DNA of 64,000 nucleotides, taken from an uncultured Collinsella sp. (GTDB lineage Bacteria; Actinomycetota; Coriobacteriia; Coriobacteriales; Coriobacteriaceae). Where the stretch lies: positions 236-64,235 of the forward strand of contig CABQHT010000003.1 in the NCBI GenBank assembly GCA_902464035.1, in the 5' to 3' direction. This document shows positions 927-62,211 of the stretch, one piece after another. Positions within the stretch are counted from its first letter, which is position 1, and every line of letters begins with the position of its first letter. The notes below the pieces were generated by a model that searched no databases, had not been told where the DNA came from, and saw only the letters and a program-made list of their open reading frames with translations. Made by a program: the position numbers and the translations under genes.

Positions 927-2834
927 TTACTGCTGCTTTGGCATCAGCGGATTCTCGCGCGTGAGAAGATTCATAAACTCCTCGCCCGTGATCGTCTCCT
1001 TCTTGTACAGATAACGAGCCAGCTCGTGGAGCTTAAACTTGTTCTCCTTGAGGATCTGCAGGGCACGATCGTGCGCATCCTCAATCAGCTTGGCGACAAT
1101 CGCGTCCACGCGCTCGGCCGTACCGGGAGCGCAGGTAAGCGACGTGTCCTGGTTAAGGTACGCGTTCTGGACGGTACCGAGCGCCATCATGCCAAACTCA
1201 TCGGACATACCAAAGCGTGTCACCATATTACGGGCGAGCTTAGTGGCCTGCTCGATGTCGTTGGCCGCACCGGTCGTCATCTCGCCAAAGATGAGCTCCT
1301 CGGCAGCACGTCCGCCGCAGTAGACGGCGAGCTTGTCCAGAACCTCCTGGCGCGTGGTCAGGAAGCGCTCGTCCTCCTCGACCTGCATGGTGTAGCCCAG
1401 AGCACCGCTCGTGCGCGGCACGATGGTGATCTTCGTGACCGGCGCAGAGCCCTTCTGACGGGCGGCAACGATGGCATGGCCGATCTCGTGGTAAGAAACG
1501 ACCTGCTTCTCGTGGTCGGACAGCACCGTGGACTTGCGCTGCTGACCGGCGATGACAACCTCCACCGACTCCTCAAAATCGTCCTGCGTGGCGCGCTTGC
1601 GACCCTCGCGGACGGCACGCAAGGCGCCCTCGTTGATGATATTGGCCAGGTCGGCGCCCGAGGCACCGGGCGTGGCACGGGCAATCGCAGTAAGGTCGAT
1701 CGGCGGCTGCGTCTTCACGCTCTTGGCATGCAGCTCAAGGATGTTCTTGCGACCGGTCAGGTCGGGCAGCTCAACGGGGATGCGGCGGTCAAAACGACCG
1801 GGGCGCAACAAGGCCGGGTCAAGGCTATCGGGTCGGTTGGTAGCAGCGAGAACGACAATACCCTTGTGGTTATCGAAGCCGTCCATCTCGGTCAGCAGCT
1901 GGTTGAGCGTCTGCTCGCGCTCGTCGTTGCCACTAAAGCCGCCACCATCGCGCTTCTTGCCGATGGTATCGATCTCATCGATAAAGACGATGCAGGGAGC
2001 CTTTTCCTTGGCCTGCTTAAACAGGTCGCGTACCTTAGCGGCGCCACGACCGACGAACATCTCGACGAACTCGGAACCCGAAATGCTAAAGAACGGCACA
2101 CCCGCCTCGCCGGCAACGGCCTTGGCAAGCAGGGTCTTACCCGTACCCGGGGGGCCGACAAGAAGAGCACCGCGCGGCAGCTTAGCGCCGATCTCCTCGT
2201 AGCGCTGCGGCTTCTCCAGAAAGTCGACGACCTCCTTGAGGGACTCCTTAGCCTCTTCCTGGCCAGCGACGTCCTTAAAGGTCACGCCCACATCCTTGGA
2301 GGCGATCACGCGCGCGCCGGACTTGCCCAGTCCACCGCCGCCAAAACCACCGCCGCCAAAGTTCATCGACGGACCGTCATCACCCATGGCCTTCTTCATG
2401 CGGCGGTTGAGCCACCAGCCGATCAGGAAGAAAATCGCCATGGGAAGAATGAGGGTGAGCAGGTAGTAGGTCATCAGACCCGAGTTCTTATCGGGAACGA
2501 CTGACTCAAGCGAGGCGCCAGATTCAAGCACGCGATCGGTAAAGCCCGCGTCATTCGGCACGCCGGTCGTCTTGTAGGCGATGTTCTCGTCCTCGCCCTT
2601 CTTGGTGTAATAAATCGTGTAATCGTCCGTGTTGTACTCGACCTTGTCGACGCTCTTCTTATCGAGCGCTTTGACAAACGTCGAATAATCGGTCTTCGTA
2701 ATCTGCTGCGTGTGACCGATGTTGGGGAACAGAACGGTCGAGAGCACGAGGTAGACGACGAAGGCGATGAGCACGTAGAGGATCATATTCCGTCTACGTT
2801 TGTTGTCATCCATCTCCATCTGCTTGAACTCCAT
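927..2834 (-). CDS. ftsH: ATP-dependent zinc metalloprotease FtsH
   Basis: Two TM helices, Walker [17 protein letters not shown] motif, HEIGH zinc motif. Confidence 0.97.
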
Positions 2835-2911
2835 CTACTGGGGTTGATAATGGTAACTAGAATACCCAACCCGGCCGGCGATAAACCGACGCCGAGCACG
2901 AAAGGACAGAG

Positions 2912-3397
2912 ATGGCATCACTGGAAGTCGGCAAGGTTCAGATCTACACGGGCGACGGCAAGGGCAAGACGACGGCTGCGCTGGGGCTCGCACTGCGCGC
3001 CACGGGCTATGGACTTAACGTGCTTATGCTGCAGTTTGCCAAGAAGCTGCACTGCGCCGAGCACGATGCCGCGCCGCGTCTGGGGCTACGCATTGTGCAG
3101 GCCGACCGCGATACGCCCGAGACTTGCGCCGCGCAGATCATGGAGCTCGCACGCAAGCAGATTAGCCAAGTCGACGTTCTGATTCTGGACGAACTTGGCG
3201 AGGCCATGCGACGGGGCTTTGTGACGCGCGAAGATGTCGAAGCGTTGATCACAATGAAACCGACCACCACAGAACTCGTGCTCACCGGCCGCGGCTTGCT
3301 GCCACTGGCCGATCTCGCGGACCTAGTAACCGAAATGCGCCCCATCAAACACTACTTCGACGAAGGCCTCCTAGCCCGCCAAGGCATCGAATACTAG
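2912..3397 (+). CDS. cobO: Cob(I)yrinic acid a,c-diamide adenosyltransferase (CobO/BtuR type)
   Basis: VQIYTGDGKGKTTAALG, LILDE, ELVLTGR, ADLVTEM and GIEY end. Confidence 0.92.
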   Translation: MASLEVGKVQIYTGDGKGKTTAALGLALRATGYGLNVLMLQFAKKLHCAEHDAAPRLGLRIVQADRDTPETCAAQIMELARKQISQVDVLILDELGEAMRRGFVTREDVEALITMKPTTTELVLTGRGLLPLADLADLVTEMRPIKHYFDEGLLARQGIEY

Positions 3398-23385: not shown

Positions 23386-23391
23386 ACAACC

Positions 23392-23466
23392 TGGCTCCCC
23401 GGGTAGGACTCGAACCTACAACAGCGCGGTTAACAGCCGCGTGCTCTACCATTGAGCTACCGAGGA
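23392..23466 (-). tRNA. tRNA-Asn (GTT), copy 2 in transcription order
   Basis: TCCTCGG TA GCTCAATGGTAGAGC A CGCGGCTGTTAACCGCG CTGTT GTAGGTTCGAGTCCTAC CCGGGGAG CCA cloverleaf. Confidence 0.97.
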
Positions 23467-23500
23467 ATTTAAAAGCCCAACGAGAAGGGCTGGAAAATTC

Positions 23501-23575
23501 TGGCTCCCCGGGTAGGACTCGAACCTACAACAACGCGGTTAACAGCCGCGCGCTCTACCATTGAGCTACCGAGGA
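23501..23575 (-). tRNA. tRNA-Asn (GTT), copy 1 in transcription order
   Basis: Same cloverleaf with encoded CCA; two differences from the other copy. Confidence 0.97.
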
Positions 23576-23761
23576 ATAGGTGCGTGCTCTCAAGCAACGA
23601 AGTTTATTATACGGACGATTGGGCGAAGGGCAAGAACTTTTTTAAGAAATTTTCTCGCCTTGATCCCTTGGGGACGGCCTAACTGCCGGCACCGGCAACG
23701 GAAACGCCGATGTTTTGACAATGCCAGCGAGCGGGCACCAGAGCGAACAAATTGGCATGAA

Positions 23762-30859: not shown

Positions 30860-33574
30860 CTACTCGGTACGGGCAACCTGGTCGATGCGGTAGCCCTCAA
30901 TGGTGTCGCCAGGCTTGATGTCCTGGAAGTTCTCCAAGCCAATACCGCCCTCGGAGCCGCTCTTGAGGCTCTTGGCCTCGTCCTTGTAGTGGCGCATCGA
31001 GGCGATCTTGCCGTTGAAGACCACAATACCGTCGCGCACCAGACGCACGGAATCGGTCGCGGCGATCTCGCCCTCTTCGACGCGGACACCGGCGGCGATA
31101 CCGACCTTGGGCACCTTGAAGGTGTCCAGAACGGTCGCGGAACCCGTGGAGACCTCGACCTCGGTGGGCTTGAGCATGCCGATACGGGCTGCGTCGAGGT
31201 CCTCGAGGCACTTGTAGATGACGTCGTAGCAACGGATCTCGACACCCTCGCGCTCGGCAGCGGAGCGGGCCTTGCCGTCGGGACGGACGCCAAAGCCGAT
31301 GATGATGGCGTTGGAGGCGTCGGCCAGGACGACGTCGGTCTCGTTGATGGCGCCAACGGCGGAGTGGATCGTGTTGATGCGCACCTCGGACTGGTCCATC
31401 TTGTCGAGGGAGTCCTGAAGGGCCTCGATAGAACCCTGGACGTCGGCCTTGATGATCAGGTTGAGCTCCTTGACCTCGGCATCGGCGATGGTCTCGAAGA
31501 GGTTCTCGAGCGTCACGTGCTTCACGCGGCTCTGCTCCTCGATACGGGCCTTGAGCGAACGCTCATCGGCCAGGGCGCGAGCCTCGCGCTCGTCCTCGAA
31601 CACGCGGAACTCATCGCCGGCGTTGGGGACGGACTGCAGGCCCAAGATCTCGACGGCGTCGGAGGGACCGGCCTCAGTGACGGCGTTGCCCTTGGGGTCG
31701 AGCATGGCGCGGACGCGGCCGTAGGTAAGGCCGGCGACCAGCGTATCGCCCACGTGCAGGGTACCGCGAGTCACGAGCACGGTGGCAACCGAGCCGCGGC
31801 CCTTGTCGAGCTTAGCCTCAAGGACGTTGCCCGAAGCGAACGTATCGGGGTTGGCCTTGAGCTCGAGCACGTCGGCCTGGAGCAGGACGGTCTCGAGCAG
31901 GTCGTCGATACCGATCTTCTGCTTGGCCGAGATATTGACGAACATGTTCTGTCCGCCCCACTCCTCGGGGATGATGCCGTACTCGGTGAGCTCCTGGCGC
32001 ACGCGGTCGGGGTTGGCACCCGGCTTATCGATCTTGTTGACGGCGACGACGATGGGGACGCCGGCTGCCTTGGCATGGTTGATCGACTCGATGGTCTGGG
32101 GCATGACGCCGTCGTCGGCGGCCACGATCAAGATGACGATGTCGGTCACCTTGGCGCCGCGGGCACGCATCGCCGTAAAGGTGGCGTGACCGGGGGTATC
32201 GATGAAGGTGATCTTGCGGTCGTTGATCATGACCTGCGAAGCGCCGATGGCCTGGGTAATGCCGCCCGCCTCGCCGGCAGCGACGCCGGTATGACGGATG
32301 GCGTCGAGGAGGCTCGTCTTGCCGTGGTCGACGTGGCCCATGACGGTGACGACCGGGGCACGCGGCTTAAGGTCGGCGGGATCGTCGTAGAACGAGAAGG
32401 TGTTCTCCTCCTCGGGGGTGATGATCTTAATCTGACGGCCCAGGTCGTCGGCAACGAGCTCGACGAGGTCGTCGGACATGGACTGCGTCATGGTAAGCGG
32501 CGTGCCCAGCAGGAACAGGCGCTTGATGATGTCGTTGGCCGGAACGTCGAGCGCCTCGGCGAGCTCCTGGACGGTAACGCCCTGGGAGACCTTGATGGCG
32601 TCGAGGTCCTCGGGGTTCACGCCCTGGGCCAGCGCCTCCTCAATCTTGCGCTCTTCCTGAGCCTTTGCGGCCTCGCGCTCGCGCTTCTCCTTGCGCTTTT
32701 TGCGGCGACCAGTGGACTCGCGAGAGGCCTCCTCGACGGCGGCACGAGCCTCCTCGAGCACCTTCTCGCGGCTGTACTCCTCGGCCTCGCGAGCCATGCG
32801 GCTGTAGTGGTCCTCTTCGTTGTTGTGACCGCCCTTGCGCTTCTTGCCCTTGCCCTGCTTGTCGGGGTTGGGGAAGTCCATGCCGGCAGCGACGTTGTTG
32901 CTGGCATTGGTGCGATGACTGTGGGGACGGCTCTCGGAGGCGTTGCGCTCGGAGTTGTTGTCGGAGGCGTTGCGATCGTTACGACGGCCACCGCGACGGT
33001 CGTTGTTGCCGCCACGACGGTTGCCGCGCTCGGCAGCGCGCTCGGCCTTGGCCTTCTGCTCGGCGTCCTTCTTCTCCTTGAGCACGGTCTCCTGTGCGGC
33101 GATCTGGTCGAGCAGCGAGCGGAAACGCGAACCGGAATCGGAAGCGGGAACGGCGCGGCGCTGGGCCTCGCGGGCAGCCTCCTCCTTCTCGCGGGCAAGA
33201 CGCTCCTGCTCGGCCTTCTTCTTGGCCTCGGCCTCGGCGCGGGCGGCCTCCTCGGCAGCCTGGGCGGCTGCGAACTGACGGCGCTCCTCCTCGCGTGCCT
33301 TCTCGGCAGCGATGCGCTCGCGCTCCGCCTCGGCAGCGCGTGCTGCCTCCTCGGCGGCGGCTGCCTCCTCCTCGGCCTGCTTTGCGGCCTCGACTTCCTT
33401 GGCGCGGGCCTCGATCACCGAGGCGAGCTGCTTGCGGACCATGGCGACGTAGGCGTCCTCCAGGGCGGAGGAAGCGGACTTAGCGGGAATCTTCATTTCG
33501 GCGAGATGACCCATCAGTTCCTTGGAGGTCATGCCGAACTCTTTGGCCAGGGTGGACACACGGACTTTTGCCAT
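30860..33574 (-). CDS. infB: Translation initiation factor IF-2
   Basis: [24 protein letters not shown]. Confidence 0.98.
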
Positions 33575-38266: not shown

Positions 38267-38385
38267 GGGTCGGTCGGCTTAGCTTTATTCGCTACTGCGG
38301 ACAGTCCTGCGCAAGACGAAGAGCACATTAAGTGCTCTTCTTTGCGTGCGGAACTTGTAGCGAACAAAGCTAAGCCGCCCGACCC
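38267..38385. repeat. ~120-bp long imperfect hairpin (REP/MITE-like) immediately upstream of leuS
   Basis: GGGTCGGTCGGCTTAGCTTTATTCGCTAC pairs with GTAGCGAACAAAGCTAAGCCGCCCGACCC (27/29); inner stem GAAGAGCAC/GTGCTCTTC. Confidence 0.7.
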
Positions 38386-40714: not shown

Positions 40715-40878
40715 GCGCCATAGAATGGGCCTATCTACTACGTTTAGTTGAACACCCTCTACCACACCAGATTTCGTGAAAACAAAACCGCTGGTAGACA
40801 GCTTGCCAGTTTTCAAAAAAGGCAGGTATGGTCGACCCCTAAGGGTTAAACGTAGTAGATAGGCCGTTTTCGTGGCGC
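40715..40878 (-). repeat. Inverted-repeat element with perfect 19-bp arms and the same internal core as the 53-58 kb repeats
   Basis: GGCCTATCTACTACGTTTA (40728-40746) / TAAACGTAGTAGATAGGCC (40847-40865); minus-strand core GTCGACCAT...TCTACCAGCGGTTTT...GGTGTGGTAG. Confidence 0.75.
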
Positions 40879-46815: not shown

Positions 46816-48243
46816 CTACACCCCCTTCTTGGGCAGGTTAAACGCGCGGGCCGTCTCGGCGTACAGCGCGCGGTAGTTGGCGAGCATCTGCTCGTGCAGA
46901 TAGTAGGTCGCCACGCGACGCTGACCGCGCTCCCCCATCTCCAGACGGCGTGCACGGCTCGCGCACATGCGCTCCATGGCGTCGGCCAGGCCCTTGCGGT
47001 ACATGGGCGGGCTCACAAAACCCGCCACGCCAAAGTCATCGCCCGGGGCGCCTTCGAGCAGCTCGCGGCAACAGCCCACCTCGGTCGTCACGCAGGGGCG
47101 GCGCGCTGCAAGCGACTCCAGCACGCTGAGCGGCTGGCCCTCGGAGATGCTCGTCAGAATGGTAAAGTCGAGCTTTTCCATGTACTCGACCACGTTGACG
47201 CGCCCGGTAAAGATCAGATCGCGCACGCCCAGGGTATCGACCAGCGCGTGGCACTCGGCACCGTACTCCTCGTCGTCCACGCCGCCCATGATGTGCAGGC
47301 GCACCTTGGGCAGGCGCTCGTGCAGCTCAAAGAAGGCGTAGATCATGGTCTTGACGTCCTTGATGGGCGCCAGACGCACCACGGCGCCAATGTCCACCCA
47401 GCCGTCATCGGACTTAAGGGGAATGTCCTTAAAGCGGTCAAACTGGATGCCATTGGGAATGACCAGGCACTTGGATGCGTCGCAGCCCATGTCGGTCTGC
47501 GTCTTGCGGGCGTTGTGGAACAGGCTCGTCACGCGGAAGGCGCGGCGGTAGATCTCCTCGGACAGCACGTAGAAAAAGCGAATCCAGCGGTCCTTAAACG
47601 AGGGCACCACCCAGTCGGCGCGAATGATCTCTTCCTCGCGCTCGCGCGTGTAGATGCCGTGCTCGGTCAGCAGCACCGGCGCGTTGTGAACGCTCGAGCC
47701 CAGACAGGCAAGCAGACCGCCGTAACCGGTCGAGATCGCGTGGTACACGTCCGCCACCGGCACCTCACTGCCCAGCAGGTACAGCACGGGCAGTAACATA
47801 GAGCGCATGGTGTGGAAGGCATCGGCAAACGGAACGTAGGGGTACTCGGCCAGGCACACGTCGCGGAAGATGTCCATAAACGCGCGACTCTGTAAAAACG
47901 AGAGCGGGTGAACACGGCGACGCTGGAAGATGTCGAATAGCACGTCCCAGTCCGGGTTGGAGAGCGACACCAGACGGCGCAACGCCTCGCGCTCACGAGC
48001 GTTAAAGCTGGCTTCGTGCTGCTCGCCCGAAAGACGAAGGGCGTCGTCCAAAAACACCTCGTGCACCTCGACGACGTTCTTGGGCAGCTCGTAAACAAAC
48101 TTGCCGCGGTCGGCGGCATGCGCGCCGATCACCCACAGCACAAACTCGTGCTCGGGCATGGATTGGATGTAGCCGTGCATCCAGGTGGACACGCCACCGT
48201 GCACATAGGGGTAGCAGCCCTCGAGCACCAAGCAGATTCTCAT
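46816..48243 (-). CDS. pelF: GT4 glycosyltransferase PelF
   Basis: EGCYPYVHGGVSTW, TEHGIYTRERE, PIKDVKT, SISEGQPL. Confidence 0.95.
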   Translation of the reverse strand: MRICLVLEGCYPYVHGGVSTWMHGYIQSMPEHEFVLWVIGAHAADRGKFVYELPKNVVEVHEVFLDDALRLSGEQHEASFNAREREALRRLVSLSNPDWDVLFDIFQRRRVHPLSFLQSRAFMDIFRDVCLAEYPYVPFADAFHTMRSMLLPVLYLLGSEVPVADVYHAISTGYGGLLACLGSSVHNAPVLLTEHGIYTREREEEIIRADWVVPSFKDRWIRFFYVLSEEIYRRAFRVTSLFHNARKTQTDMGCDASKCLVIPNGIQFDRFKDIPLKSDDGWVDIGAVVRLAPIKDVKTMIYAFFELHERLPKVRLHIMGGVDDEEYGAECHALVDTLGVRDLIFTGRVNVVEYMEKLDFTILTSISEGQPLSVLESLAARRPCVTTEVGCCRELLEGAPGDDFGVAGFVSPPMYRKGLADAMERMCASRARRLEMGERGQRRVATYYLHEQMLANYRALYAETARAFNLPKKGV

Positions 48244-50120: not shown

Positions 50121-51022
50121 CGTGCCTCCTCCCCATCGCGCCAAAATGCCAGCTTCTCGCGGTTGTCGGCATTCAAATACACATGCTGCTTGTCGATCGC
50201 GTCGATCACCTGTTGCACGCCCTCGCCATCGTGGCGCGTCACGGCAAGACGCAGGCAAAGCATCCACGCCTCCTGTTCGTCCGGCGCATCTGCCACAAGC
50301 TGCGTGGTCACGGCCTCGGCCTCGTCCAGCTCGCCAGCATCGGCCAACGCCGTGGCGTAGCGAATGCGCAGCGCCGTCCCGTCCTCGCGCTCGCAACGAC
50401 GCGCGAGCAGGCGGGCATACTGCTGGCGCTGAATCTGCGCCACGCGCCCCTCGGCCAGACCAGAGGCCAAATAGTCACCAAGGTAGTCACAGTACTCATC
50501 CAGATTTTGCGCGCTGGGATCGGCCTTAAACGCACGCTCCAGCTGCTGCAGCTTGAGGTCGGACTCCTTGGAGATCTGCGCCACGGCCGTCGCGGCATAG
50601 TGCGCGACCTCGACGTCATCGTTGAGCTTAGCGGCCTGGAGCTGCGCCAGATAGGCGCCCGGGTCCTCGGTGAGCATAGAGAGCATAAGGCGCCGGCGGT
50701 CGCCCGCGTCATTGACGATGAGCGCCTCCTCGAGCGGCACCACGCCGGCATCGGCCTCGCGGCGCTGAACCTGCACGCCGCGACGTATATCGTCCTGTAA
50801 GCGAAGCGATTCCAACGCGCTGGCACGAGACGCGTCGCCACATGCCTGGTCGCGTGCGCAGAGCAGTACCACCAGCAACGGGCCCCACAACGGCACGAGC
50901 ACCATCACGGGCAGCATGTGTCCGCGGACCGGTAGCAGGCCCACCTTCATAAGCGTCCAGAGCACCAGGCACACCAGCGTGTGGATTATCAATAAGAACA
51001 CGGCGGCAACAAGCGAGATCAA
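50117..51022 (-). CDS. PelE-like membrane-anchored TPR/helical protein
   Basis: Two N-terminal TM helices; VVPLEEAL, NDDVEVAHYAATA; position between pelD and pelA. Confidence 0.8.
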   Translation of the reverse strand: MISLVAAVFLLIIHTLVCLVLWTLMKVGLLPVRGHMLPVMVLVPLWGPLLVVLLCARDQACGDASRASALESLRLQDDIRRGVQVQRREADAGVVPLEEALIVNDAGDRRRLMLSMLTEDPGAYLAQLQAAKLNDDVEVAHYAATAVAQISKESDLKLQQLERAFKADPSAQNLDEYCDYLGDYLASGLAEGRVAQIQRQQYARLLARRCEREDGTALRIRYATALADAGELDEAEAVTTQLVADAPDEQEAWMLCLRLAVTRHDGEGVQQVIDAIDKQHVYLNADNREKLAFWRDGEEAR

Positions 51023-53157
51023 GCAGCATCCCCCTCGCCATCGGAGCCGGCGGGATCAATCTGCCGCAGCAGTGCCACAGCGCCCTCGCCGTCGACATGC
51101 TCGACGGCAATCTGCTTAGAGGCCATGCGCTTGCAAATGACGGGCAGGTCGGCCTCGGTGGCCTGACGCATGAGCAGATACAGCGTGTCGCCGACCAGGC
51201 CCGCGGCATCGCTCTCGCGGATCGCCGACCCAATCGCCCCAACCAGCTCGCCGACGGGCTCCATGCCCGGAACCACGCGCAAGAGCAAATAGCTCCCCAT
51301 CTTGCTGTCTGCAAGCGCCTGCTCGGTGGCAAGCTCGCGACCGAAGGCATCCTGCTTAAGCACACGCGTGCCCGCAATGCAGCGCTTGTCCTGCGCCACG
51401 GCCTCGTAATCGAAGGCGCGGCCCAGCGCGCTTTCAACCAGACCGCACAAAATGCGGAACAGGTTTTGGTAATAGAGGGTCATTTGGCTCTCGGCCACGC
51501 GTCGCACAAAGATAAAGATCGCCGGTGCCCCGTCGCGCTCCATCACGTAGGCAAACATGGGCAGCCCCGGCACCAGCTTGCGGTTCACCCACAGGCCCGA
51601 GTGGTCCACGCCCTCCATCATGGCCTTAAGATCGTCGAGCGCCAACGAGCGCAGCGCATCGGAAGAAATTGCCGGGCTCGCGGCGACCAGGCGCGTAAAC
51701 GCCCCACCCGAAACGTGGTAGATCGTCACCGAGTCGTTTTCCAAAATCTCGCCGAGCAACTCGCAGCACTTACGGTAGATATCGCGCGGGTTGAGCACGT
51801 CGAGCTCCTGCGTCACGGCAAAGATCTTGCCAAAGCTGTCGTGGCGACCCACAATCTGCCGCTTGTAGGCCTGTTTATCCTCAATCGCGTCGTGGTAGAG
51901 CCGGCCCAAAAAGTCATTGCGGTTGCGAACGAGCTCGTTCTCGGCGCGCTCGGCCTTGAGCGCCTCGCGGTTGCGCAGCTGCACATAGCCGCATACGGCG
52001 CCCACCACAAAGTAGGCGATGAACGGCAGCCAGTTAGAGGGCTCGTAGAACAGTCCCTGGAAGGTATAGCCATACTGGGTAAAGTAGCTCGCAGCCAGGC
52101 CAATCGAGGCCAGCAGCGCCGCGACCAGGCCAAAATCGAGCCCGTAGAGTGTGCCGATCAGTACCACATACAGCAGGCGGTAGTCGAGCACGTTAAGCTG
52201 TGCCGACTGGGAAAACACCCGCTCCAGGCACTCAAAGAGCACCCAAGCAAGCGCGGTCTCTGCGCATGTGACAGGCAGCGTGTGCTCGCGCATACGGTCG
52301 ATGGCATGGCGCAGCGGGTGGCGCCTGCCCGCGCGGGACTGCTCCCAGTGGGCATGTATGGTCGAAAGATCGGTGAGCACGTCGTAGCGCTGGAACCAGC
52401 CATAGCGCTTGCGGATGGCATCGCTCGGCGCCACGGAAGCTTCCGCGTCGTCGCCATAGGTTACGTCCAGCCCCGGGAACAGGCCCTGCAACGCCTCGCC
52501 CAAGTCGCCCACCGTATGGGAGAAGCAATCCGCAACGTCGAGCTCCTCGAAGGCGGCGTCCCAGCTATCGAAAATGCGGTGCACCAGAGCGGCCAGCTCC
52601 TCGGCGCACAGAGCCTGCAGCGGAGACGCCGCGCTGCCCTTTAACGCGACCGAGCCGCGCGAGCACGTCTGAAACAGCGGCGTCATAAACGGATCTGCCA
52701 ACGCAGGCGACGCGGTATACAGATACGGAACGCACAGAATCTTTGCTTGGATGCCGTCGCGGGCCGCATAGTAGCGGCACAGGTCGTTGGCCGCGCGGGC
52801 AATGATGCCCTTGCCGGTTTGACCCGCGGCATCGACGTCGCCATCCGCCCCTGCCGGCCCCGTCACAAACAGCAGCTGGATCTGGCGGTCCATGCAGGCA
52901 CGAAAGACCGAGCGCAGCAGCTCGATGTCGCCAAAGGTCTCGGTATGCGGCGTGAGGTAGGTAGAGAGATAGACCACGCGATCGAACTCGTAGGCCTGGT
53001 CCAGGTGTTGCAGCAGCTCATTCCAGGACGAGGGAGCCGGCGACCCATCGCGTTGGGCGTCGCTCGCAGCCACAACCTGAACATGGTCCCCCGGGAACGC
53101 CTTGGCGCAAAAATCGTCATCGACATACGAAGTATTGCCAACAACCAGCACTTCCAC
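51019..53157 (-). CDS. PelD-like protein: degenerate SDR/epimerase domain, DUF4118-like TM region, GAF and degenerate GGDEF domain with RxxD site
   Basis: N-terminal Rossmann-like fold, LDYRLLYVVLIG TM region, DSFGKIF, IRESD near the C-terminus. Confidence 0.8.
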   Translation of the reverse strand: MEVLVVGNTSYVDDDFCAKAFPGDHVQVVAASDAQRDGSPAPSSWNELLQHLDQAYEFDRVVYLSTYLTPHTETFGDIELLRSVFRACMDRQIQLLFVTGPAGADGDVDAAGQTGKGIIARAANDLCRYYAARDGIQAKILCVPYLYTASPALADPFMTPLFQTCSRGSVALKGSAASPLQALCAEELAALVHRIFDSWDAAFEELDVADCFSHTVGDLGEALQGLFPGLDVTYGDDAEASVAPSDAIRKRYGWFQRYDVLTDLSTIHAHWEQSRAGRRHPLRHAIDRMREHTLPVTCAETALAWVLFECLERVFSQSAQLNVLDYRLLYVVLIGTLYGLDFGLVAALLASIGLAASYFTQYGYTFQGLFYEPSNWLPFIAYFVVGAVCGYVQLRNREALKAERAENELVRNRNDFLGRLYHDAIEDKQAYKRQIVGRHDSFGKIFAVTQELDVLNPRDIYRKCCELLGEILENDSVTIYHVSGGAFTRLVAASPAISSDALRSLALDDLKAMMEGVDHSGLWVNRKLVPGLPMFAYVMERDGAPAIFIFVRRVAESQMTLYYQNLFRILCGLVESALGRAFDYEAVAQDKRCIAGTRVLKQDAFGRELATEQALADSKMGSYLLLRVVPGMEPVGELVGAIGSAIRESDAAGLVGDTLYLLMRQATEADLPVICKRMASKQIAVEHVDGEGAVALLRQIDPAGSDGEGDAA

Positions 53158-53299
53158 CGTGCGCTCCCCTCCCTTTAGATCTCAATCATGTTAAACATGC
53201 GTATTGTACGCTGCTCGCGCATATGTCCAAAATCTTTAAGGGTGATTTAAGAACATCTTTAGACCGTGCGAGCGCGCCAAAATAGGATAAAAGGCATCA

Positions 53300-53565
53300 A
53301 ATCCGGAAGTATGCGGCAAAATCGGAACAGGTCGACCATGCCGAGTAGCGACAACGCGTCTACCTGCGATTTCTTTGCGCAAAAATGGTGGTGTGCTCGG
53401 GGGTTCCATAATTTGCCGCATACTTCTAACGGTCGATTTCGGAAGTGCGGGGAAAATCGAAAAACGCCGACCAGACCCCTGTTTTGTGCTTCCGCGACCT
53501 GCGGTTTTGTTGCAAAAAATCGAGTTGTGCTCGGAGGTTTTCGATTTTTCCCGCACTTCCGGAAT
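53300..53565 (+). repeat. Double-hairpin repeat copy 1 (unit A plus unit B)
   Basis: Unit A arms GAAGTATGCGGCAAA/TTTGCCGCATACTTC; unit B arms GGAAGTGCGGGGAAAATCG/CGATTTTTCCCGCACTTCC. Confidence 0.9.
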
Positions 53566-53840
53566 TACAGCCTGGATCGAGAGCTCTAGCGACAATGAGG
53601 GCATCCGCGACAACATCCAGTTGTCACGGACGTACCGAAATGTCCATCTAAATAAAACTAGGGGATGCCCTCCGTTGGGAAGGAACCCCCTCGCAAAACT
53701 ATAGCCATCAGTAGGCTTCGTTTTTTATTTATGCAAGCATACCTCAACCGTCGCACGTCTTACAACGAGAGCGGCAACATGCCGTGCATAGTCGATGAGC
53801 GAAATGTCAGCGAGCCGAGTTCAAGTCGGACAAGCACGTG

Positions 53841-53930
53841 TCAGTAAAGTTACATGCGAGCAGAAAACCGTCGGATATTTTGCCCTTTCCTAATTGAGAT
53901 GTAACTTTTGACTGGCCAAAACTTACATCC
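53841..53930 (+). repeat. 90-bp secondary repeat copy 1
   Basis: TCAGTAAAGTTACATGCGAGCAGAAAA...AATTGAGATGTAACTTTTGACTGGCCAAAACTTACATCC; similar to 58267-58356. Confidence 0.85.
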
Positions 53931-54164
53931 GGATCTTCAAGGCTTGCCAGGCATGTTAACCACAAAATACAGAAAGGCGACCATCCAAAAGAACAGCCGC
54001 CTCTCCACAGAACGTAGGCCCGTAGGTTGACTACGTCAATACCGCTAATTAATGCTAGTATCCCATTCAGGTCCCATAGGGTCAATCCAATTCAAGAAAA
54101 CGAACAGACCGGCATGCAGCATCTTCCATGAACCCCACGCCCCAGCAAGCCTGATTGAACTCGA

Positions 54165-54832
54165 CTATCCAACCAGATACGGCACTATCACGTCGAATAT
54201 CTCGCCCACCTTGGTTGCAGGGTTTTGCGCAGACGGCTTGATGTTGCATAGTCCCCTATGGTGCGCGATGAGGCGCCCCGCACGTCGCAGCGCTTCGGCA
54301 CGCTCGCCATCCACTGCTCCGAACAGCCCGTCCAGGTTCTTTCGATACTCGATATTCAGGTCCCTGGACATCGCCTGAGCGAGGGCACGCTGGCACTCCG
54401 CGGCCGTCATGGGAGCAGTCGTATAGCGAAGGTGCAAAAGGAGCCACAATTCAAAGCAGGGGTTCGACCACAGCGCATGAAACGTCCTTGACCCATCGGA
54501 GAGCTCTGCACATTTACGCTCCATCGCATCAAAATCGCATGCAGGGAAGTCGTCCTTATCGAAGACGAGCCACACGTGATCAAATGTCTCAGGCGCATAG
54601 CGACAATGTTCAACGGCGAAGTCGAGCAGGTCAAGCGTATGTTGCCAGTTCCCTTAACGACAACGGCGACCTTTCGTTCGTTTGCCGTGCCCAAAGCGGC
54701 ACGCACGCCCTCAAAGTAGCGAGGCTCAGTCTCTTTACCCTTGGTCACCACGAGGTGGCGTGTCATCTGGACCATGCGCGGGCGCCCCTCGCGCTTGCCG
54801 CTGCGCCAGCCCCTCGACTTTTTTGCCGCCAT
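54165..54832 (-). pseudogene. RloB/AbiLii family Toprim-like protein, frameshifted
   Basis: VVTKGKETEPRYF, WLVFDKD, SNPCFELWLLLH and QNPAT motifs split over two frames; 1-nt loss near 54644. Confidence 0.85.
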
Positions 54833-54833
54833 G

Positions 54834-56051
54834 CTAATCCCACTCCTCGATGCGGGTTAGATACGGGTCGGCCCCGTAGCGGCCGGACAGGTACTGTTTG
54901 TCGAAGGCCGCGTTCTTGCTCACCAGGTTGCCGTTCGCCTCGTGGATGTCGGCAAGCGACCATAGCTGGCTGGCTTCCCCTTCACCGCGCGCGGTAAACC
55001 ATATCTCGTCGCGGCGAAACACGTCGTTTCGCATGGTTGATACGTCCTGGGACGAGAATATGAGCTGCGCGCCGCTCTTGTTGACTTCGGGGTCCTTAAA
55101 CAGCAGAATCACGTAGCGCAGGAGCTTCGGATGCAGTTTGGCGTCGAGCTCGTCGACAATAACGGTGCCACCACACTCGAGCGCTGCCATCAGATACGCA
55201 GCCAACCCAATGAGCTTCTGGGTGCCGGCAGACTCCTCTGACAGACGCAGCTCATAGGGTTTTCCGCCCACCTCGTGCCTGACAAAGACGCGCTGACCGC
55301 GCCACTCCGGTGCCCTCTCCACCCTAAAGCCATCGATACGAACGTCAACAGCAAGCAGGAAACGCGTGACCTCGGGAGAGTCGCCCTCGTCAAGCAATTG
55401 CTCGAGCATCCGCTCCAGGTAGGAACTGTTGTAGTTGAGGAACACAGCGTCGAGAAACCAGCTGGCAGCCTCTTGGACCGCCGGCGTATCGAAGTTGATG
55501 CAAAGGAATGACAGGTACGGCAGGCTCGGGTTGAACTTAGCGGCGGTCACGAGCTTGCGCAACGTAGGGCCAAGCTCGACTTCTGTGCCCTCGCGCTCGA
55601 ACAGCATCGCCGTGCGTGACGCGCCCAATTTACGTCGCCACAACCCTTCGGACACGATCTCGTCGGCGTGAACGGAAAGGGCATAGCGGTATTCATGCTC
55701 ACCTGCGCGGTAGTAGAGCTCGAACTCCGTGGGCTCAGTGGCCGAGACGTCATCGAACTCGAAAGCCGAACAGCGAGCCATCGACGGACGCTCGCCTTCA
55801 GGAGCGCCAGCACGGGCGGACAGCAGCCTAACCGGTCTGGCAACCGCCGAACGCACGTAGTCGAGCGCCTCGAGTAGGTTGGATTTGCCACCAGCGTTAG
55901 GCCCGTACACCGCAGCCACCGGCAGGAAGCTCTGACCGTCAGGCCACTCGACAAGGGAACGCTCAAACTCCCGCATCGGCGTAGCCTGCATGGATAGTTC
56001 CACCTCATCGCGATAAGATCTGTAATTCCTGAAAGTGAACTGGCAAAGCAT
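54834..56051 (-). CDS. AAA_21/ABC-type ATPase (RloA/AbiLi-like)
   Basis: FRNYRSY, GPNAGGKSN, EESAGTQK, VDELDAKLHP, FRRDEIWF, YLSGRYGA; start MLCQF with SD GAGG. Confidence 0.9.
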   Translation of the reverse strand: MLCQFTFRNYRSYRDEVELSMQATPMREFERSLVEWPDGQSFLPVAAVYGPNAGGKSNLLEALDYVRSAVARPVRLLSARAGAPEGERPSMARCSAFEFDDVSATEPTEFELYYRAGEHEYRYALSVHADEIVSEGLWRRKLGASRTAMLFEREGTEVELGPTLRKLVTAAKFNPSLPYLSFLCINFDTPAVQEAASWFLDAVFLNYNSSYLERMLEQLLDEGDSPEVTRFLLAVDVRIDGFRVERAPEWRGQRVFVRHEVGGKPYELRLSEESAGTQKLIGLAAYLMAALECGGTVIVDELDAKLHPKLLRYVILLFKDPEVNKSGAQLIFSSQDVSTMRNDVFRRDEIWFTARGEGEASQLWSLADIHEANGNLVSKNAAFDKQYLSGRYGADPYLTRIEEWD

Positions 56052-56173
56052 CGTCCTCAACATTCCTATCAGTGTTTTGAAAACATATTTCAGAGTTTTT
56101 CTTTGATTATAGACTCTAAATATAGTCAATCAAGAGCTTAAAGCCTCAGATGATATAAGGCGCTAGGCACTGA

Positions 56174-56438
56174 ATTCAGAAGTATGCGGCAAAATCCCGA
56201 CATGCCGACCATACCCAAAAGCGGCAACGCTTTTGCCTGCGGTTTCTTTATTCGAAAACGGTTGTGTGCTCGGGGGTTACGGAATTTGCCACATACTTCC
56301 GTTCAGCGATTCCAGAAGTGCGGGGAAAATCCGAGATCCGCCGACCAGACCCCGGTTTTGCGCTCCTGCGACCTGCGGTTTTGTTGCCAAAAACCAGGTT
56401 GTGCTCGGCGGTTTCCGATTTTCCCCGCACTTCCGGAA
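56174..56438 (+). repeat. Double-hairpin repeat copy 2 (unit A plus unit B)
   Basis: Same arms and core motifs as copy 1, same orientation. Confidence 0.9.
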
Positions 56439-56494
56439 AACAACCGCGACCATGGCATTCCCGCCACCTAAAAGTTCAACAGTCAGCGTATGGC

Positions 56495-56947
56495 TTATTC
56501 ACTTTGAAAGGGCACATCGCAATCTGCCGCCAGTTCGGCAGGAAGGACAGCGGGCAGCGTAAGCGCCCCCATAGGCGAAAGCCCAGTAACAACCATCAAA
56601 TAGCTCTTCGCATGGGCATATGCCATCGAAATGGCATTTGAAAGAAGGTAGTGACGCGCCTCGTCATCGGGAGGGTTCATTGGCATTTGCGCTGAAACCG
56701 AGATGGATACCGTAACGCCAGCGTGCATCTTCTCCTGTGCACCTTCGTCTCTGTCAAGAAGGCTGCCAATTACGCACATCTTTAGACTTGCGCGTGCATC
56801 ATTACCTTTTTTCGAAAGATGGACATCTTGGTAGCTAACGTCAACTTTTAATTCCATGTTATCCGAGGGCGAATCCTCGATATGGAAATCGGAGTCAACG
56901 ACGAACAAATGAACGACTTGAATCGGAGCAATAAAATCCCTACTCAT
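56495..56947 (-). CDS. SecB-like chaperone (TAC system)
   Basis: 150 aa, beta-rich; C-terminal NAISMAYAHAKSYLMVVTGLSPMGALTLP resembles the SecB helix-PPL motif; third gene after toxin and HTH. Confidence 0.7.
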   Translation of the reverse strand: MSRDFIAPIQVVHLFVVDSDFHIEDSPSDNMELKVDVSYQDVHLSKKGNDARASLKMCVIGSLLDRDEGAQEKMHAGVTVSISVSAQMPMNPPDDEARHYLLSNAISMAYAHAKSYLMVVTGLSPMGALTLPAVLPAELAADCDVPFQSE

Positions 56948-57357
56948 GCCGCCAAACCTCCAGGAATCATTTCGAACTTCGCTTGCGAGGACGGACGCTC
57001 GCTGCTAAAAGACCATTGCTTACGCAGGGATTCGCCGGGCAAGAGAAACGGGAGCTCTTTGGAATAGCTAACGGTAACCTTAGGAACGATCCTAATACCC
57101 AAAGCAAGCTCGAACCTAGCGATCGTTTTCAGCGTCATATTGGGCTGAGAATTCAGCAGCTTCGAAAGCGACTGAAGGCTCACGCCCATACGCTTTGCCA
57201 AATCGCTTTTGCTTAAACCCAAATGCTTCATCTCGCGATGAACAATAAACTCGATATCTAGCGCGTGTTCATAAGCGCGTGTTTCGCTAGTTTCTGTCTC
57301 GGCGTAAAAATCAGATAAATCTACTTTATTCATTGTGTTCTCCGTTTCGAAAGCCAA
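56944..57357 (-). CDS. XRE/HigA-like HTH antitoxin with C-terminal extension
   Basis: LSKSDLAKRMGVSLQSLSKLLNSQPNMTLKTIARFELALG HTH followed by a ~45-aa tail. Confidence 0.85.
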   Translation of the reverse strand: MAFETENTMNKVDLSDFYAETETSETRAYEHALDIEFIVHREMKHLGLSKSDLAKRMGVSLQSLSKLLNSQPNMTLKTIARFELALGIRIVPKVTVSYSKELPFLLPGESLRKQWSFSSERPSSQAKFEMIPGGLAA

Positions 57358-57366
57358 GTATAAAAG

Positions 57367-57780
57367 TCAACGCTCAGATTCCAGAAGCTGACATGCTATT
57401 ACGGCTAATCGCTTGGCCCGATCAATTTCCTTACTGATATTTCCCGATCCCCGATGTCCTTTAAACCAAAACAATAGAACAATTTTGTCTACGCCCTGGC
57501 ATATGGCATAAATCATCTCTCGATTTGCCCCGTCAAACCCTTTTAGTTCATAGAGGCCAATCTTAGAATCAATGCATCTTAGCTTTGAGGTCCCACTGGC
57601 AACCTTTAACCCATAATCATAGATTTTTGAAATCTGGACGATCATTTTACGAGCGGCAATTTTACGCTTAGGGTCTGACATCATCTTCTGAAATTGAGAG
57701 TTGTCGGAAGAAGTCGTCAGCTCCCAAAACGGGCGGCCCTTGGGGTCTCTATATTCGTCAAGTTCATATCCTTCTGCCAA
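57367..57780 (-). CDS. RelE/HigB-like (Gp49-type) toxin
   Basis: YELDEYRDPKGR, LYELK, IVLLFWFK, KEIDRAKR pattern; upstream of the HTH gene; TTG start with SD GGAGG. Confidence 0.72.
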   Translation of the reverse strand: MAEGYELDEYRDPKGRPFWELTTSSDNSQFQKMMSDPKRKIAARKMIVQISKIYDYGLKVASGTSKLRCIDSKIGLYELKGFDGANREMIYAICQGVDKIVLLFWFKGHRGSGNISKEIDRAKRLAVIACQLLESER

Positions 57781-57797
57781 AGGCCACCTCCCATTTC

Positions 57798-57831
57798 TAG
57801 TTACACTTAACTTATAAGTTAAGTGTAACTA
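57798..57831. promoter_or_regulatory. Perfect 34-bp palindromic operator upstream of the TAC operon
   Basis: TAGTTACACTTAACTTATAAGTTAAGTGTAACTA is its own reverse complement. Confidence 0.8.
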
Positions 57832-57906
57832 TTTAAATACAAATAACAAGGCATAAACTAGACTCCGCAGCCCCAAATCGAAAAACAATCCAACCAAGTG
57901 GTGCTC

Positions 57907-58093
57907 AATCCGGAAGTATGCGGCAAATTCTAGACATGCCGATCACACTGGATAGCGGCAACGCTTTTACCTGCGGTTTCTTTTCATGAAAAGGACGATG
58001 TGCTCGAGAGTTCCGAAATTTGCCGCATACTTCCGACGGACGATTCCGGAAGTGCGGGGAAAGTCCGAGATCGGTAGACCAGGCCCCTGTTTT
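57907..58093 (+). repeat. Double-hairpin repeat copy 3 (unit A plus truncated unit B)
   Basis: CGGAAGTATGCGGCAAATT/AATTTGCCGCATACTTCCG; unit B similarity ends after GACCAGGCCCCTGTTTT. Confidence 0.88.
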
Positions 58094-58266
58094 AGATATC
58101 CTCGACAAGCCCCTTAAACGCGAAAACCGCCTTTCGGCGGTTCCCGCGGACCAAGCCGGACGTACCGTCGCAAGGCCTCATCACAATTCACACTCTAAGG
58201 AAATGAACAGTCGCGGTCAATCTTCAGCAAAGAATCCGTTGCGAATTAGAGCCAGATAAATGAACA

Positions 58267-58356
58267 TCAGTAAAGTTACATGCGAGCAGAAAATCACACG
58301 CAATTTCATCTTTTCTCAATTGAGATGCAAGTTTTGACAGGCCGAATCTTACATCC
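58267..58356 (+). repeat. 90-bp secondary repeat copy 2
   Basis: TCAGTAAAGTTACATGCGAGCAGAAAA...AATTGAGATGCAAGTTTTGACAGGCCGAATCTTACATCC. Confidence 0.85.
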
Positions 58357-58697: not shown

Positions 58698-59660
58698 TCA
58701 GGCAGTCGGGTACCATACATCGATCATACCTTTGAAAAAGCTAAAAGAAGATTTTACAGGGTCATTTTTATCGTAATACTGAGCATTGCGATACATACGG
58801 TCAATAGACTGGTGAAGTAGAACGCCCTTTGCCGCAACAACGCCAGGAGATGCAATCAGATGATGCAAGTAAAGAGTCGTCGAAATTTGCTGAATCCTGC
58901 CATTGCTCAACTTCGTTGAAAGGGTGATATCCGAATAACCGACAGCACGTAAGGCGTTTTTAACATTTCGACTGATCTCATGAGAAGGATTTCCTCCTTT
59001 AAGGTCATCGATAATACAATTATTATGTCCGCAGGCATTACGAAGTGCTTTGACGCTTTGAAGTTGATAGTACCGAGTTTTAAGCTTTTTATCTTGATCT
59101 TTATTCGCAATAAATAAAAGAAATTGGTTAAAGGTGCCAAAAGGAATAAGCTCAACAAAAGCCCAGACCGGATAACGATAATCAGGGTAATCGGCAATTA
59201 TTTGGTTTGTGTAACACCCATTTGCGCCTCGGTTGATTTCCGATTTAACCGAATTTGCTATTTGCCCATTTTTCAACTTTCGATCTTTAGAGGAGATGTA
59301 TTTCTCGACAACTGAATGCCCGTCTTCTGAATGGGCTTCCAAATACCTCAGCAATTGAATTTTGGAATAGTGCTCGACATCAATTGCGATCGAAAGGAGC
59401 ACTTGCCGAAATTCATAGTCGATGATTGCAAGATCGCAAAGCATTCCAAAGTCCAAGTTGATGAAGAGGCCGTCGTTCGGACCGCCCACATACTTTGGAA
59501 AACCTTTTCGAAATAGATTAATACGAAAGAAATTATTATTCGCCTCAAGATACCGTTCAGCATTATCCTTCGAAGTGAGCTCGAATTTAATGCCCTCCGA
59601 TTCAAGATGCTGAACTTGCTGAGCAGGAGTCAGCCATGGCTTGGGTCGAAATTCATCCAT
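58698..59660 (-). CDS. Abi family (AbiD/AbiF, Abi_2) HEPN protein
   Basis: KPWLTPAQQVQHL, YLEANNNFFR, DYEFR...IDVEHYSK, PVWAFVELIPFG, and LRNACGHNN (RX4H). Confidence 0.9.
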   Translation of the reverse strand: MDEFRPKPWLTPAQQVQHLESEGIKFELTSKDNAERYLEANNNFFRINLFRKGFPKYVGGPNDGLFINLDFGMLCDLAIIDYEFRQVLLSIAIDVEHYSKIQLLRYLEAHSEDGHSVVEKYISSKDRKLKNGQIANSVKSEINRGANGCYTNQIIADYPDYRYPVWAFVELIPFGTFNQFLLFIANKDQDKKLKTRYYQLQSVKALRNACGHNNCIIDDLKGGNPSHEISRNVKNALRAVGYSDITLSTKLSNGRIQQISTTLYLHHLIASPGVVAAKGVLLHQSIDRMYRNAQYYDKNDPVKSSFSFFKGMIDVWYPTA

Positions 59661-59809: not shown

Positions 59810-60622
59810 TCATCTAGGCCAAGAAATCCTAATTCGATTAATTGTATTGTTAACCGTTGATTGCAGAACATTATCTTGCTCGTCAAAAGTCATTGGAAAA
59901 TACTGAAGGTAACGGTTACCAAGTATGTCCGAGTAGGCAATAAGGATGCGATAACCAGCTTCCATCATCGGCTTTGTTTTGCCCTCAAAATAGATGACCA
60001 ACTCACTCTCCCCACCCACCGGAAGCTGCCGAGTTTTACCCCAATCAATCTGGGGGCTCCCAGAATGCAGCAAGTCATTTCTTCTAGCAATTCCAACCCT
60101 AACGTTAACCGCAGGTCCAGCCCCTATACTGGACACTACATAGCGATTGGCGGCATGTTTGGGCTCAGGATTAGCACCACAAGGGACAGCCGGATCGCCG
60201 TTACTAATTGAAAGGCGGTCTACGCAGTCCAAAACGCCGGATTTATATTCGTCGTCTTTGGGATCGTCTTCGGTAAATATGCTGTGAACAAGACTATTCT
60301 TCGTCAACCGAAAAGGCTTAGCAGACAAACGGGTCAGGGCAATACACGGAAGAATGCTCATCACGTCAGAATGTCTCCGGTCTTCCCTCCCAGCCCGCAG
60401 CGAGAAATACAGTACCGCAATGGCCGAAATTGAACCGACCAACGCGCCGAGCTATCCAAGTAGGCCGTTGGCATCCCATACGGGACACAGCCATTCAACT
60501 GGAGCGTCAATTGAAAATGTAAACTGGATGACTATCAGCAAAAATACAGACAGGACCGCAACACAAGCGATAAACGCTTTTATTAAATCAAATACAGAAG
60601 GCTTCCTCTTGCCCCAGCGCAT
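59810..60622 (-). pseudogene. Two-TM membrane protein interrupted by an in-frame TAG at 60452-60454
   Basis: SD GAAAGGAG with ATG 60622 gives MRWGKRKPSVFDLIKAFIACVAVLSVFLL...NGLLG*LGALVGSISAIAVLYFS, in frame with ORF 59810-60442. Confidence 0.75.
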
Positions 60623-60762
60623 CCCAACCAAACTCCTTTCATAAAACAGGGTTATAGATAGTTATTAATCCGTAATCAATGACCGCATAGCTCCAGCATC
60701 GAAAATTATTATTGATGCCCTCTTTAAGCTCATATTTATCTTATGAGCTTCGAATCTATGCC

Positions 60763-62211
60763 CTAAGAAAGAAAATCAGCTCTAAATCGACCCTCAGAAT
60801 ATTGAAAAGCCACCTTCGCTGGGAAAAAAGAATCAAAGAGAGCGGCATAGGAAAGCACGTCCTCAACCCAATTCACTAGACTAGCGGGCAGCAGGCGGGC
60901 AGTTTCATGCCCGTTGTCAGAAATTAGAGCCATAGGGGCCCCGTCCTTGGCAAACATAACCTTTAGCACCGTATAAATTCTTGGCTGATCAGTGATTCTA
61001 AGGCGAGGGCGAAACAGATTGCTGGGATCGCTCGAATGGCTCACCCATAAAGGATCATCATCCATTACGCGGAAGTGCTCCGAAAGACTCACGCAACATG
61101 AGGTGTTGAAATATTCCGAGATATTCTCGCCCACCTCACGAAGCTGAGAAGCATTTTCAAAACTGTTGAGGTAGTTAAGAAGCGAAAGCAAAACCACAAG
61201 GTCATCTGAGTAGCCGCTAGCATAAAACTTGTACCAGCATTGATCATACTGGATCAGTACTCGTCGTAACTTTTTATACAACGCGAGCCGTTCGTCATTT
61301 AGCTTGAACCACTCTATATCAAAGAGCTTCTTTTTGAGCTCATCTTCTTGCGATTGATAGGTTTGCTCATCACGGATGGCTTTCATAAGCTTTGCCACAA
61401 TCCCAACAAGCATATCGGACATTCTAATGCCGAAACACCCTGTCGAGTCAGCTTGACGCACCCCGCTAAAACCCAACTGCTCTGCAGCGATCCTGGTTTT
61501 CTCTTCACGATCAATTACAAGCGAGTAGCTATCGACTTCATTATGCTCACTCAGATATAGCGCGAATCCAGACAGAGCGGAATGATATTCCCACTCATAA
61601 TTCTCCAGCGGATCCGCGCATTCAATGACATTCAAAAGCAGCTGACACTGATCAATTTCAGTATGCTTAAGCTCGAGATTCGTTTTGTCTAGCTCAATTC
61701 TTTTTCGAAGAAAATCCCGTAGCGCAGTCAGCAAATCATCGGGAGATCGGTATAACGACTCAACCACTTCAATAGGCCTATATTGAACTAGTAGCTTTGC
61801 AAGAGAGTACTTTAGCGAATCGGCATTAAACCAAGGGTTATTTTGATATTGGCTGAATAACTTATCGATTAGCCATTCAGCCTTGCTTGAAAAGGCGCAA
61901 TAAACATATATGTCTTCATCAAACAAGTCGAGGAAATCGCTTATCAGGCGTGCATTGTTCGAGGATAAAGATTTAAAACCGTATTTAAAGTGACTCTTTT
62001 TAAGAACGGTACTCTTTAACTCTTTAGCGTTTGGAGAGAGGTACTTATTTTCAAACTCAGAGTATTTGACTGCTAGATCTTGCTCCCGGTGAACGTTCCA
62101 TCCAACTATTGCAACTACAAATCCATCGTAAAATTCATCGGCAGTGATCGTCCTGAGATTTAAAAGGCGACTATGCTGACTTTCGTCATAGTAAAAAGCG
62201 TAATTAGGCAT
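60763..62211 (-). CDS. DUF3800-like (RNase H-fold-like) protein
   Basis: N-terminal FYYDES, KELKS, VIDREE, ADS...GIRMSDMLVG motifs; low GC. Confidence 0.7.
   Translation of the reverse strand: MPNYAFYYDESQHSRLLNLRTITADEFYDGFVVAIVGWNVHREQDLAVKYSEFENKYLSPNAKELKSTVLKKSHFKYGFKSLSSNNARLISDFLDLFDEDIYVYCAFSSKAEWLIDKLFSQYQNNPWFNADSLKYSLAKLLVQYRPIEVVESLYRSPDDLLTALRDFLRKRIELDKTNLELKHTEIDQCQLLLNVIECADPLENYEWEYHSALSGFALYLSEHNEVDSYSLVIDREEKTRIAAEQLGFSGVRQADSTGCFGIRMSDMLVGIVAKLMKAIRDEQTYQSQEDELKKKLFDIEWFKLNDERLALYKKLRRVLIQYDQCWYKFYASGYSDDLVVLLSLLNYLNSFENASQLREVGENISEYFNTSCCVSLSEHFRVMDDDPLWVSHSSDPSNLFRPRLRITDQPRIYTVLKVMFAKDGAPMALISDNGHETARLLPASLVNWVEDVLSYAALFDSFFPAKVAFQYSEGRFRADFLS

Follow-up and report, generated by a model that had tools for sequence, protein, structure and literature searches.

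Inverted-repeat elements at the module junctions of a Collinsella defence hotspot and their candidate nuclease partner

In a 64,000-nucleotide stretch of DNA from an uncultured Collinsella sp. (contig CABQHT010000003.1 of assembly GCA_902464035.1, positions 236 to 64,235; hereafter the window, in which every coordinate is the contig coordinate minus 235), three same-orientation copies of a repeat built from two inverted-repeat elements, A and B, separate defence modules next to pelD, the first gene of a pel-type operon. The evidence leans, if modestly, toward reading A and B as non-autonomous elements resembling REPINs and BIMEs, with a nuclease as their partner and with homologous swapping of modules at the junctions near pelD. 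Two alleles of that nuclease, alike save for about 73 residues and each accompanied by its own arm sequence, amount to a natural swap of specificity, which makes it testable whether these palindromes have DUF559-type nucleases as their enzymes. The arrangement points to a route by which a hotspot without a linked integrase may have its anti-phage modules reshuffled in a common gut actinobacterium, and it makes the elements a marker for finding candidate defence genes.

An initial annotation of the window had described three direct copies of a diverged repeat, and the number, position, orientation and divergence of the copies are borne out: there are two full A+B doubles and one truncated one, all on the forward strand. 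In copy 1 an A-type element (53300–53427; identified by BLAST, folding and arm alignment) is followed after about 10 bp by a B-type element (53438–53565). Copy 2, directly upstream of rloA, comprises A at 56173–56303 and B at 56310–56440, and copy 3, upstream of a toxin gene, comprises A at 57907–58038 and a B element of which the left part alone remains (58044–58093). Pairwise identities between copies are 81.4%, 78.1% and 79.7% (BLAST E values 2e-68 to 7e-37). An assembly artefact is unlikely: the copies share only about 80% identity, and what adjoins copies 1 and 3 is found again in other genomes; the rloA side of copy 2 recurs as well, and the junction between copy 2 and the adjoining toxin-antitoxin-chaperone (TAC) module was seen here alone.

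A and B are homologous to each other, and alignments of copies from relatives are almost free of gaps. The conserved parts of a unit, set at fixed spacing, are the outer arms (about 17 bp each), two inner half-sites and a central motif that is asymmetric. The five full units fold with z scores of −3.6 to −7.3, and none of 200 shuffles folded equally well. The term double hairpin, used in the initial annotation, overstates this structure, since the inverted arms and inner half-sites flank a centre of about 50 nt that is unpaired and compensatory changes were seen at 0 of 23 pairs in 20 A units. For the same two reasons the units fit better as predicted protein-binding sites on double-stranded DNA than as a selected hairpin. 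A structured RNA family was set aside, there being no credible Rfam match (one chance microRNA) and no covarying stem among those 23 pairs, and scans for promoters and terminators gave the same counts as in shuffled sequence. A further repeat, S, had been overlooked; its two copies (53841–53930 and 58267–58356, both forward strand) are 80% identical and follow repeat copies 1 and 3. S is an imperfect inverted repeat with arms of its own, occurs after B elements in many relatives, was observed solely in accessory regions and is present in one of five near-complete genomes.

Judged by their sequences, A and B represent two of the arm types found in a family of inverted-repeat elements of about 125–150 bp that share a core of fixed spacing. 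In this genome (2.15 Mb in 154 contigs, 87% complete) inverted arms flank 19 of 48 core-motif matches (13 or 14 of 14 matches), compared with 0 of 150 random positions. Fifteen of those 19 armed elements, among the matches listed, lie outside the window repeats; their arms are of three further types, and the genes around them are housekeeping genes. One member of the superfamily with different arms lies between housekeeping genes in the window itself (40715–40878, reverse strand); another long palindrome between housekeeping genes, at 38267–38385, resembles an element found near rpsL in relatives. A and B are confined here to the window copies and one half-element on contig C97, which adjoins DUF3990, helix-turn-helix (HTH), Fic and nucleotidyltransferase-like genes.

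The repeat was detected in 137 of 151 Collinsella genomes, in a survey that scored five candidates per genome and reports presence only, not copy number. Across the order it was confined to the same family (33 of 48 genomes), with none in other families. Near-complete relatives carry single A or B elements at fixed core sites: one separates the genes for an alpha/beta hydrolase and a DUF362 protein, another precedes the rpsL cluster and a third adjoins a 3-hydroxyacyl-CoA dehydrogenase gene; one core site lies between converging genes. The same core site holds A or B depending on the genome (39 A and 11 B; 42 A and 26 B). Strict patterns gave 0–6 copies per arm type per genome, which are undercounts because the strict B pattern misses this genome's own B units. 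Where core-site elements are absent from this genome they look deleted, and one site retains the end of a B arm. The initial annotation had set against its own proposal the picture of a repeat scattered next to core genes with no enrichment at defence loci, and half of that picture is correct: the family is scattered and single A or B elements sit beside core genes, but A+B doubles, which keep a fixed geometry (264–274 bp), were observed only in accessory, defence-rich regions. In two genomes, G077 and G097, the B central motif is interrupted at an identical base by an IS110-family element (L267:801-2490 and L276:1364-3057), which thus appears to target these elements. Some insertion sequences are likewise directed to repetitive extragenic palindromes (REPs).

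To avoid choosing loci by the repeat, 40 pelD loci were chosen among the results of a protein search, in which 86 of 150 relatives proved to have the gene; the list was followed downward, passing over loci already sampled or near contig ends. Together with 17 repeat-selected loci and the window they make 58 pel loci. A or B is present at 30 of the 35 pelD loci with at least 3 kb, and all 47 element matches at pelD loci are in one orientation. Every element in the 58 loci lies within 4.9 kb of pelD, the window having the most distant copies. Elements occur at 0 of 26 fixed adjacency types; among the variable types they occur at 21 of 98, made up of 20 of 55 near pelD and 1 of 43 beyond 4.5 kb. 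The count for variable types contradicts the one site per cassette of an integron array; the initial annotation's expectation that swap breakpoints fall at the repeats is supported. Thirty-eight distinct A+B doubles bring together 11 classes of left flank and 10 of right flank, in 16 combinations; one left class occurs with three right classes, and one right class with four left classes. The left part of a double follows its left flank (0.81 vs 0.75) and the right part its right flank (0.84 vs 0.80), as expected from crossovers inside the element. At 10 pelD-B loci, A has been lost exactly between two shared arm starts. Sister copies bracket cargo, and similarity between them stops within 3 bp of both element ends in L147 and L093 and also at the element ends in the window; in L034, L098, L146, L148 and L260 the duplication runs 30–174 bp past the element. 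Modules are bracketed singly by sister copies in the L260 group and in L147. We consider it likely that the elements act as crossover points; the modules swapped at them are few, and the exchange probably proceeds through homologous recombination.

Modules adjacent to the elements include AbiL-like pairs, MqsRA-SecB, SIR2, IetAS, AbiD and AbiH, as well as retron-type reverse transcriptases and Schlafen-like genes, and PADLOC matches were obtained for 24 of 49 hand-picked neighbour proteins. Some of these modules recur at a glf/polysaccharide locus and a tRNA-Val island. Repeat runs never exceed three blocks. At one core site a 7.9-kb sugar-uptake operon of phosphotransferase-system and glycoside-hydrolase genes lies between two B copies that are part of a 315-bp direct duplication (L146:3916-11945). 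L093:6971-10626 carries an additional A element together with a DUF6273 gene, upstream of a sigma/anti-sigma pair that in other genomes is seemingly flanked by another inverted-repeat pair.

The enzyme that co-occurs with the repeats is a Vsr-like nuclease and not the recombinase or HUH/Y1 protein that the initial annotation proposed to look for; no linked recombinase was found among 72 hotspot proteins. One core-site element lies about 50–60 bp upstream of a gene for a 357-residue protein with weak, below-cut-off matches to DUF559 and REase_MTES_1575; MTES_1575 is described as a Vsr-fold domain in the accessible text of PMC3710099. The family is matched 1–11 times in every one of 151 genomes and clusters at 50% identity into 3437 representatives; a word-index protein search with the nuclease returned near-identical copies only, and a scan of genomes recovered the locus of a single allele. 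A first structural model had an unreliable N-terminus; a model built from 84 sequences reached a predicted local distance difference test (pLDDT) score of 94.9. Its residues 204–324 match I-Bth0305I (Z 10.2, root-mean-square deviation (rmsd) 2.4, 95 aligned residues), NGO0050 (Z 8.9) and Vsr (Z 8.5), and residues 1–199 match AbiEi residues 67–195 (Z 7.4, rmsd 3.7). D251, E266, H273, D282 and R285, putative catalytic residues, are nearly invariant across the 84 sequences. The protein is the likely partner enzyme and combines an AbiEi-like N-terminal part with a C-terminal nuclease like Vsr and homing endonucleases.

The nuclease locus exists as an A allele, as at L082:6689-7762, and a B allele, as at L129:1646-2719; the differences between them lie mainly in residues 1–73. 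An A element precedes the A-allele gene at 80 of 80 loci and a B element the B-allele gene at all 8 loci examined, and each of five more distant orthologues has an element of the same size with other arms. Of 23 more distant homologues, 16 have a long inverted repeat no more than 450 bp away, as against 53 of 400 control genes (p = 5e-9), and at order-wide homologues flanked on both sides the arms agree. DUF559 genes are, in the part of PMC9881135 available, described as enriched among predicted inversion targets. Elements and nuclease are, in our estimation, quite probably true partners. In the present genome the nuclease gene is reduced to a remnant on contig C26 and the core-site elements are gone. 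Four nuclease paralogues remain (C16:~32170-33300, C61:~2050-3170, C92:2773-3810 and C138:455-1612); those on C16 and C61 are flanked by long palindromes of their own, and other arm families follow the C138-type gene in relatives. A RAYT as partner was rejected, as the protein adjacent to the elements is Vsr-like and the sole Y1 gene has no such element nearby. That single RAYT-like Y1 HUH gene (C7:19564-20366) lies between Fe-S cluster genes, with no family element in the 3.2 kb examined.

Several results weigh against a partnership of element and nuclease combined with exchange at the repeats. The pairing in cis comes from one orthologous locus, and tight linkage alone therefore suffices to explain the 80 of 80 and 8 of 8 counts. 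In trans, the arm type at two unlinked core sites did not follow the genome's allele significantly (41:15 vs 14:11, p = 0.20, with allele labels read by hand and three ambiguous genomes excluded), and site occupancy tracks presence of the gene weakly (p = 0.06 without 14 repeat-less genomes, p = 0.001 with them). The AbiEi match lies within the range of chance best matches, and Foldseek returned nothing at E 0.001 or below for either nuclease model. At the hotspot, the gradient of flank identity is subject to confounding by kinship and does not stand out clearly at single B elements, and the count of 0 in 26 fixed adjacencies is partly trivial because those adjacencies are mostly operonic. No target-site duplication or clean empty site was seen, element-less sites in this genome looking like deletions.

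Homing endonucleases spread by cutting and repair. By a comparable route, the nuclease would read the element arms with its N-terminal segment of about 73 residues and would spread or maintain the elements through cutting followed by recombinational repair. Elements have settled, in one orientation, at the ends of accessory modules next to pelD, at the glf/polysaccharide locus and at the tRNA-Val island. These direct repeats, about 80% identical, could provide the homology by which, in the course of horizontal exchange, the one to three modules closest to pelD are swapped, added or dropped. A host DNA-bending protein may occupy the central motif, by analogy with BIME-1, and in strains that keep its gene the nuclease perhaps stimulates module exchange. 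The three-copy run described here could change only through host recombination or an incoming enzyme, because the cognate nuclease gene has been lost. We think it unlikely that the nuclease actively drives the swapping. Similarly doubtful is an integrase-free, nuclease-driven cassette system in which the enzyme cuts A or B and so swaps defence modules; A+B doubles would there be junctions addressable by either allele, the exchangeable N-terminal segment setting which arms are recognised.

The elements might instead be passive markers, REP-like sequences that build up where accessory DNA is AT-richer and under weak selection and that travel with the modules, while swapping uses other homology such as pelD, S or fragments of cell-wall genes. 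The 77 of 98 variable junction types without an element (42 of 43 beyond 4.5 kb) agree with this, as do the duplications that overrun the element; TAC moreover adjoins pelD without an element in 8 of 8 aligned loci and 4 of 4 public sequencing runs (no public run contained more than 7% of the window stretch), and other shared linkers recur at the hotspot. Passive carriage does not account so readily for unrelated left and right flanks meeting at an element in 16 combinations, for the single orientation of all 47 matches or for the exact removal of A between shared arm starts, and we regard it, like reliance on other homology, as improbable. The operator explanation, in which the AbiEi-like protein would bind the arms and repress its own gene and the adjacent hotspot defence operons, draws on position: the starts of the nuclease gene, rloA, the toxin gene and pelD are each just beyond the left arm of A, all four genes reading away from it, and AbiEi-family antitoxins are described as binding inverted repeats in promoters (PMC7319586, in its accessible part). 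The fold match, however, covers AbiEi residues 67–195 and not the winged-helix DNA-binding domain, one core-site element lies between converging genes, the nuclease residues are conserved and elements persist after loss of the gene; this explanation is very unlikely.

Of the cassette idea put forward in the initial annotation a weaker form holds: modules come, go and replace one another, and the homology breaks off at a repeat or within it. A dedicated integron-like array is not supported. The repeats lack attC ends, as had been noted (a search of both strands in all three copies for RYYYAAC ... GTTRRRY gave 0 matches), no IntI (TIGR02249) scored over cut-off in the 87%-complete genome (best 71 of 265 bits) and most junctions are unmarked, on which grounds the integron reading was rejected. 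A dedicated site-specific system of another kind, with circular defence cassettes cut out and inserted at A+B by either an unlinked recombinase or the nuclease, would suit the fixed geometry of the doubles and their restriction to accessory regions, the single modules bracketed by sister copies in L147 and the L260 group, and the PADLOC matches of about half the neighbours; six tyrosine and two serine recombinases are encoded elsewhere in the genome. Against it, in addition to the missing attC ends and IntI, stand the absence of a linked recombinase among 72 hotspot proteins (out of 160 candidate hotspot cluster representatives, further ones being covered by PADLOC and Pfam scans), the absence among the 58 pel loci of any pair differing by exactly one module and one repeat, the limit of three blocks to a run, and a sugar-uptake operon that is bracketed in the same way. 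Such a system is quite unlikely.

The modules of the window, all on the reverse strand, were identified much as in the initial annotation, damage to rloB aside. The gene called pelD (51019–53157) is the fixed left anchor of the hotspot; the name follows that annotation, and PelF was confirmed at 46816-48243. Between repeat copies 1 and 2 lie rloB/abiLii (54165–54832), split near codon 64 by a 1-base deletion relative to an intact relative, for which real inactivation and assembly error are both possible, and the AAA ATPase gene rloA/abiLi (54834–56048; AAA_21 1e-26, PADLOC AbiLi 1e-79). The TAC module between copies 2 and 3 comprises a SecB-like chaperone (56495–56947; Atlas 0.95, no Pfam match), an HTH antitoxin with a C-terminal extension (56944–57333), the only one of the three that Pfam detects, and a RelE/ParE-like toxin (57367–57780; Atlas 0.98, no Pfam match). 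An Abi_2 (AbiD/AbiF-like) gene follows at 58698–59660. Beyond it, 59810-62211 holds two unannotated low-GC genes, encoding 210 and 482 residues, that recur in the hotspots of relatives and are candidate defence genes; the longer has a weak PADLOC match to PDC-S51. The pel region at 51019-53280 has about 75% DNA identity to relatives, as against 90–98% at core loci, which suggests that the pel operon has been exchanged horizontally. A tandem pair of near-identical 78-bp tRNA-like copies lies at 23391-23577.

A literature search that fell short of most subscription journals returned no account of these elements, of a partnership between DUF559 proteins and palindromes or of this hotspot, and the accessible main text of the Di Nocera REP survey (PMC3733652) has no mention of Actinobacteria, Collinsella or Coriobacter-. 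Among known systems the pairing would follow the logic of REPIN/BIME elements and RAYT (TnpA-REP), with a different class of enzyme. As those are described in the available portions of PMC3116915 and PMC8266576, both have two conserved inverted ends around a spacer, are extragenic and dispersed, fall into several arm groups per genome that each stand beside a single-copy enzyme gene, and form tandem higher-order structures. RAYT, in contrast, is an HUH tyrosine transposase and the partner here an AbiEi-like/Vsr-like PD-(D/E)XK nuclease; the terminal GTAG/CGTC tag is missing, with scattered internal occurrences only and none in copy 2; and the spacer is of fixed length and unpaired, with 0–6 copies per arm type where REPINs number hundreds.

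In E. coli, BIME-1/RIB combines inverted arms with a linker of fixed length, in which an asymmetric motif may be the binding site of a host DNA-bending protein, a layout shared by the present elements with unrelated sequence. Xer/dif (pdif) modules use 28-bp XerC/XerD sites and differ in element size and layout. Integron attC arrays also have direct repeats between defence and toxin-antitoxin modules whose order and content vary by strain; here, in contrast, modules keep their upstream regions, there are at most three repeat blocks and the same elements occur at core sites. The partner protein shares its catalytic fold and acidic/His motif with I-Bth0305I, NGO0050 (DUF559) and Vsr but is encoded by a free-standing, palindrome-flanked gene and has an AbiEi-like N-terminus. 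Those 199 N-terminal residues resemble the domain at the C-terminus of AbiEi/Rv2827c antitoxins, whose genes inverted repeats likewise precede; in the present case the winged helix is unmatched, no AbiEii toxin partner was seen beside the gene, a nuclease is fused, and the repeats lie about 100 bp apart rather than the 3–13 bp given in the accessible part of PMC7319586.

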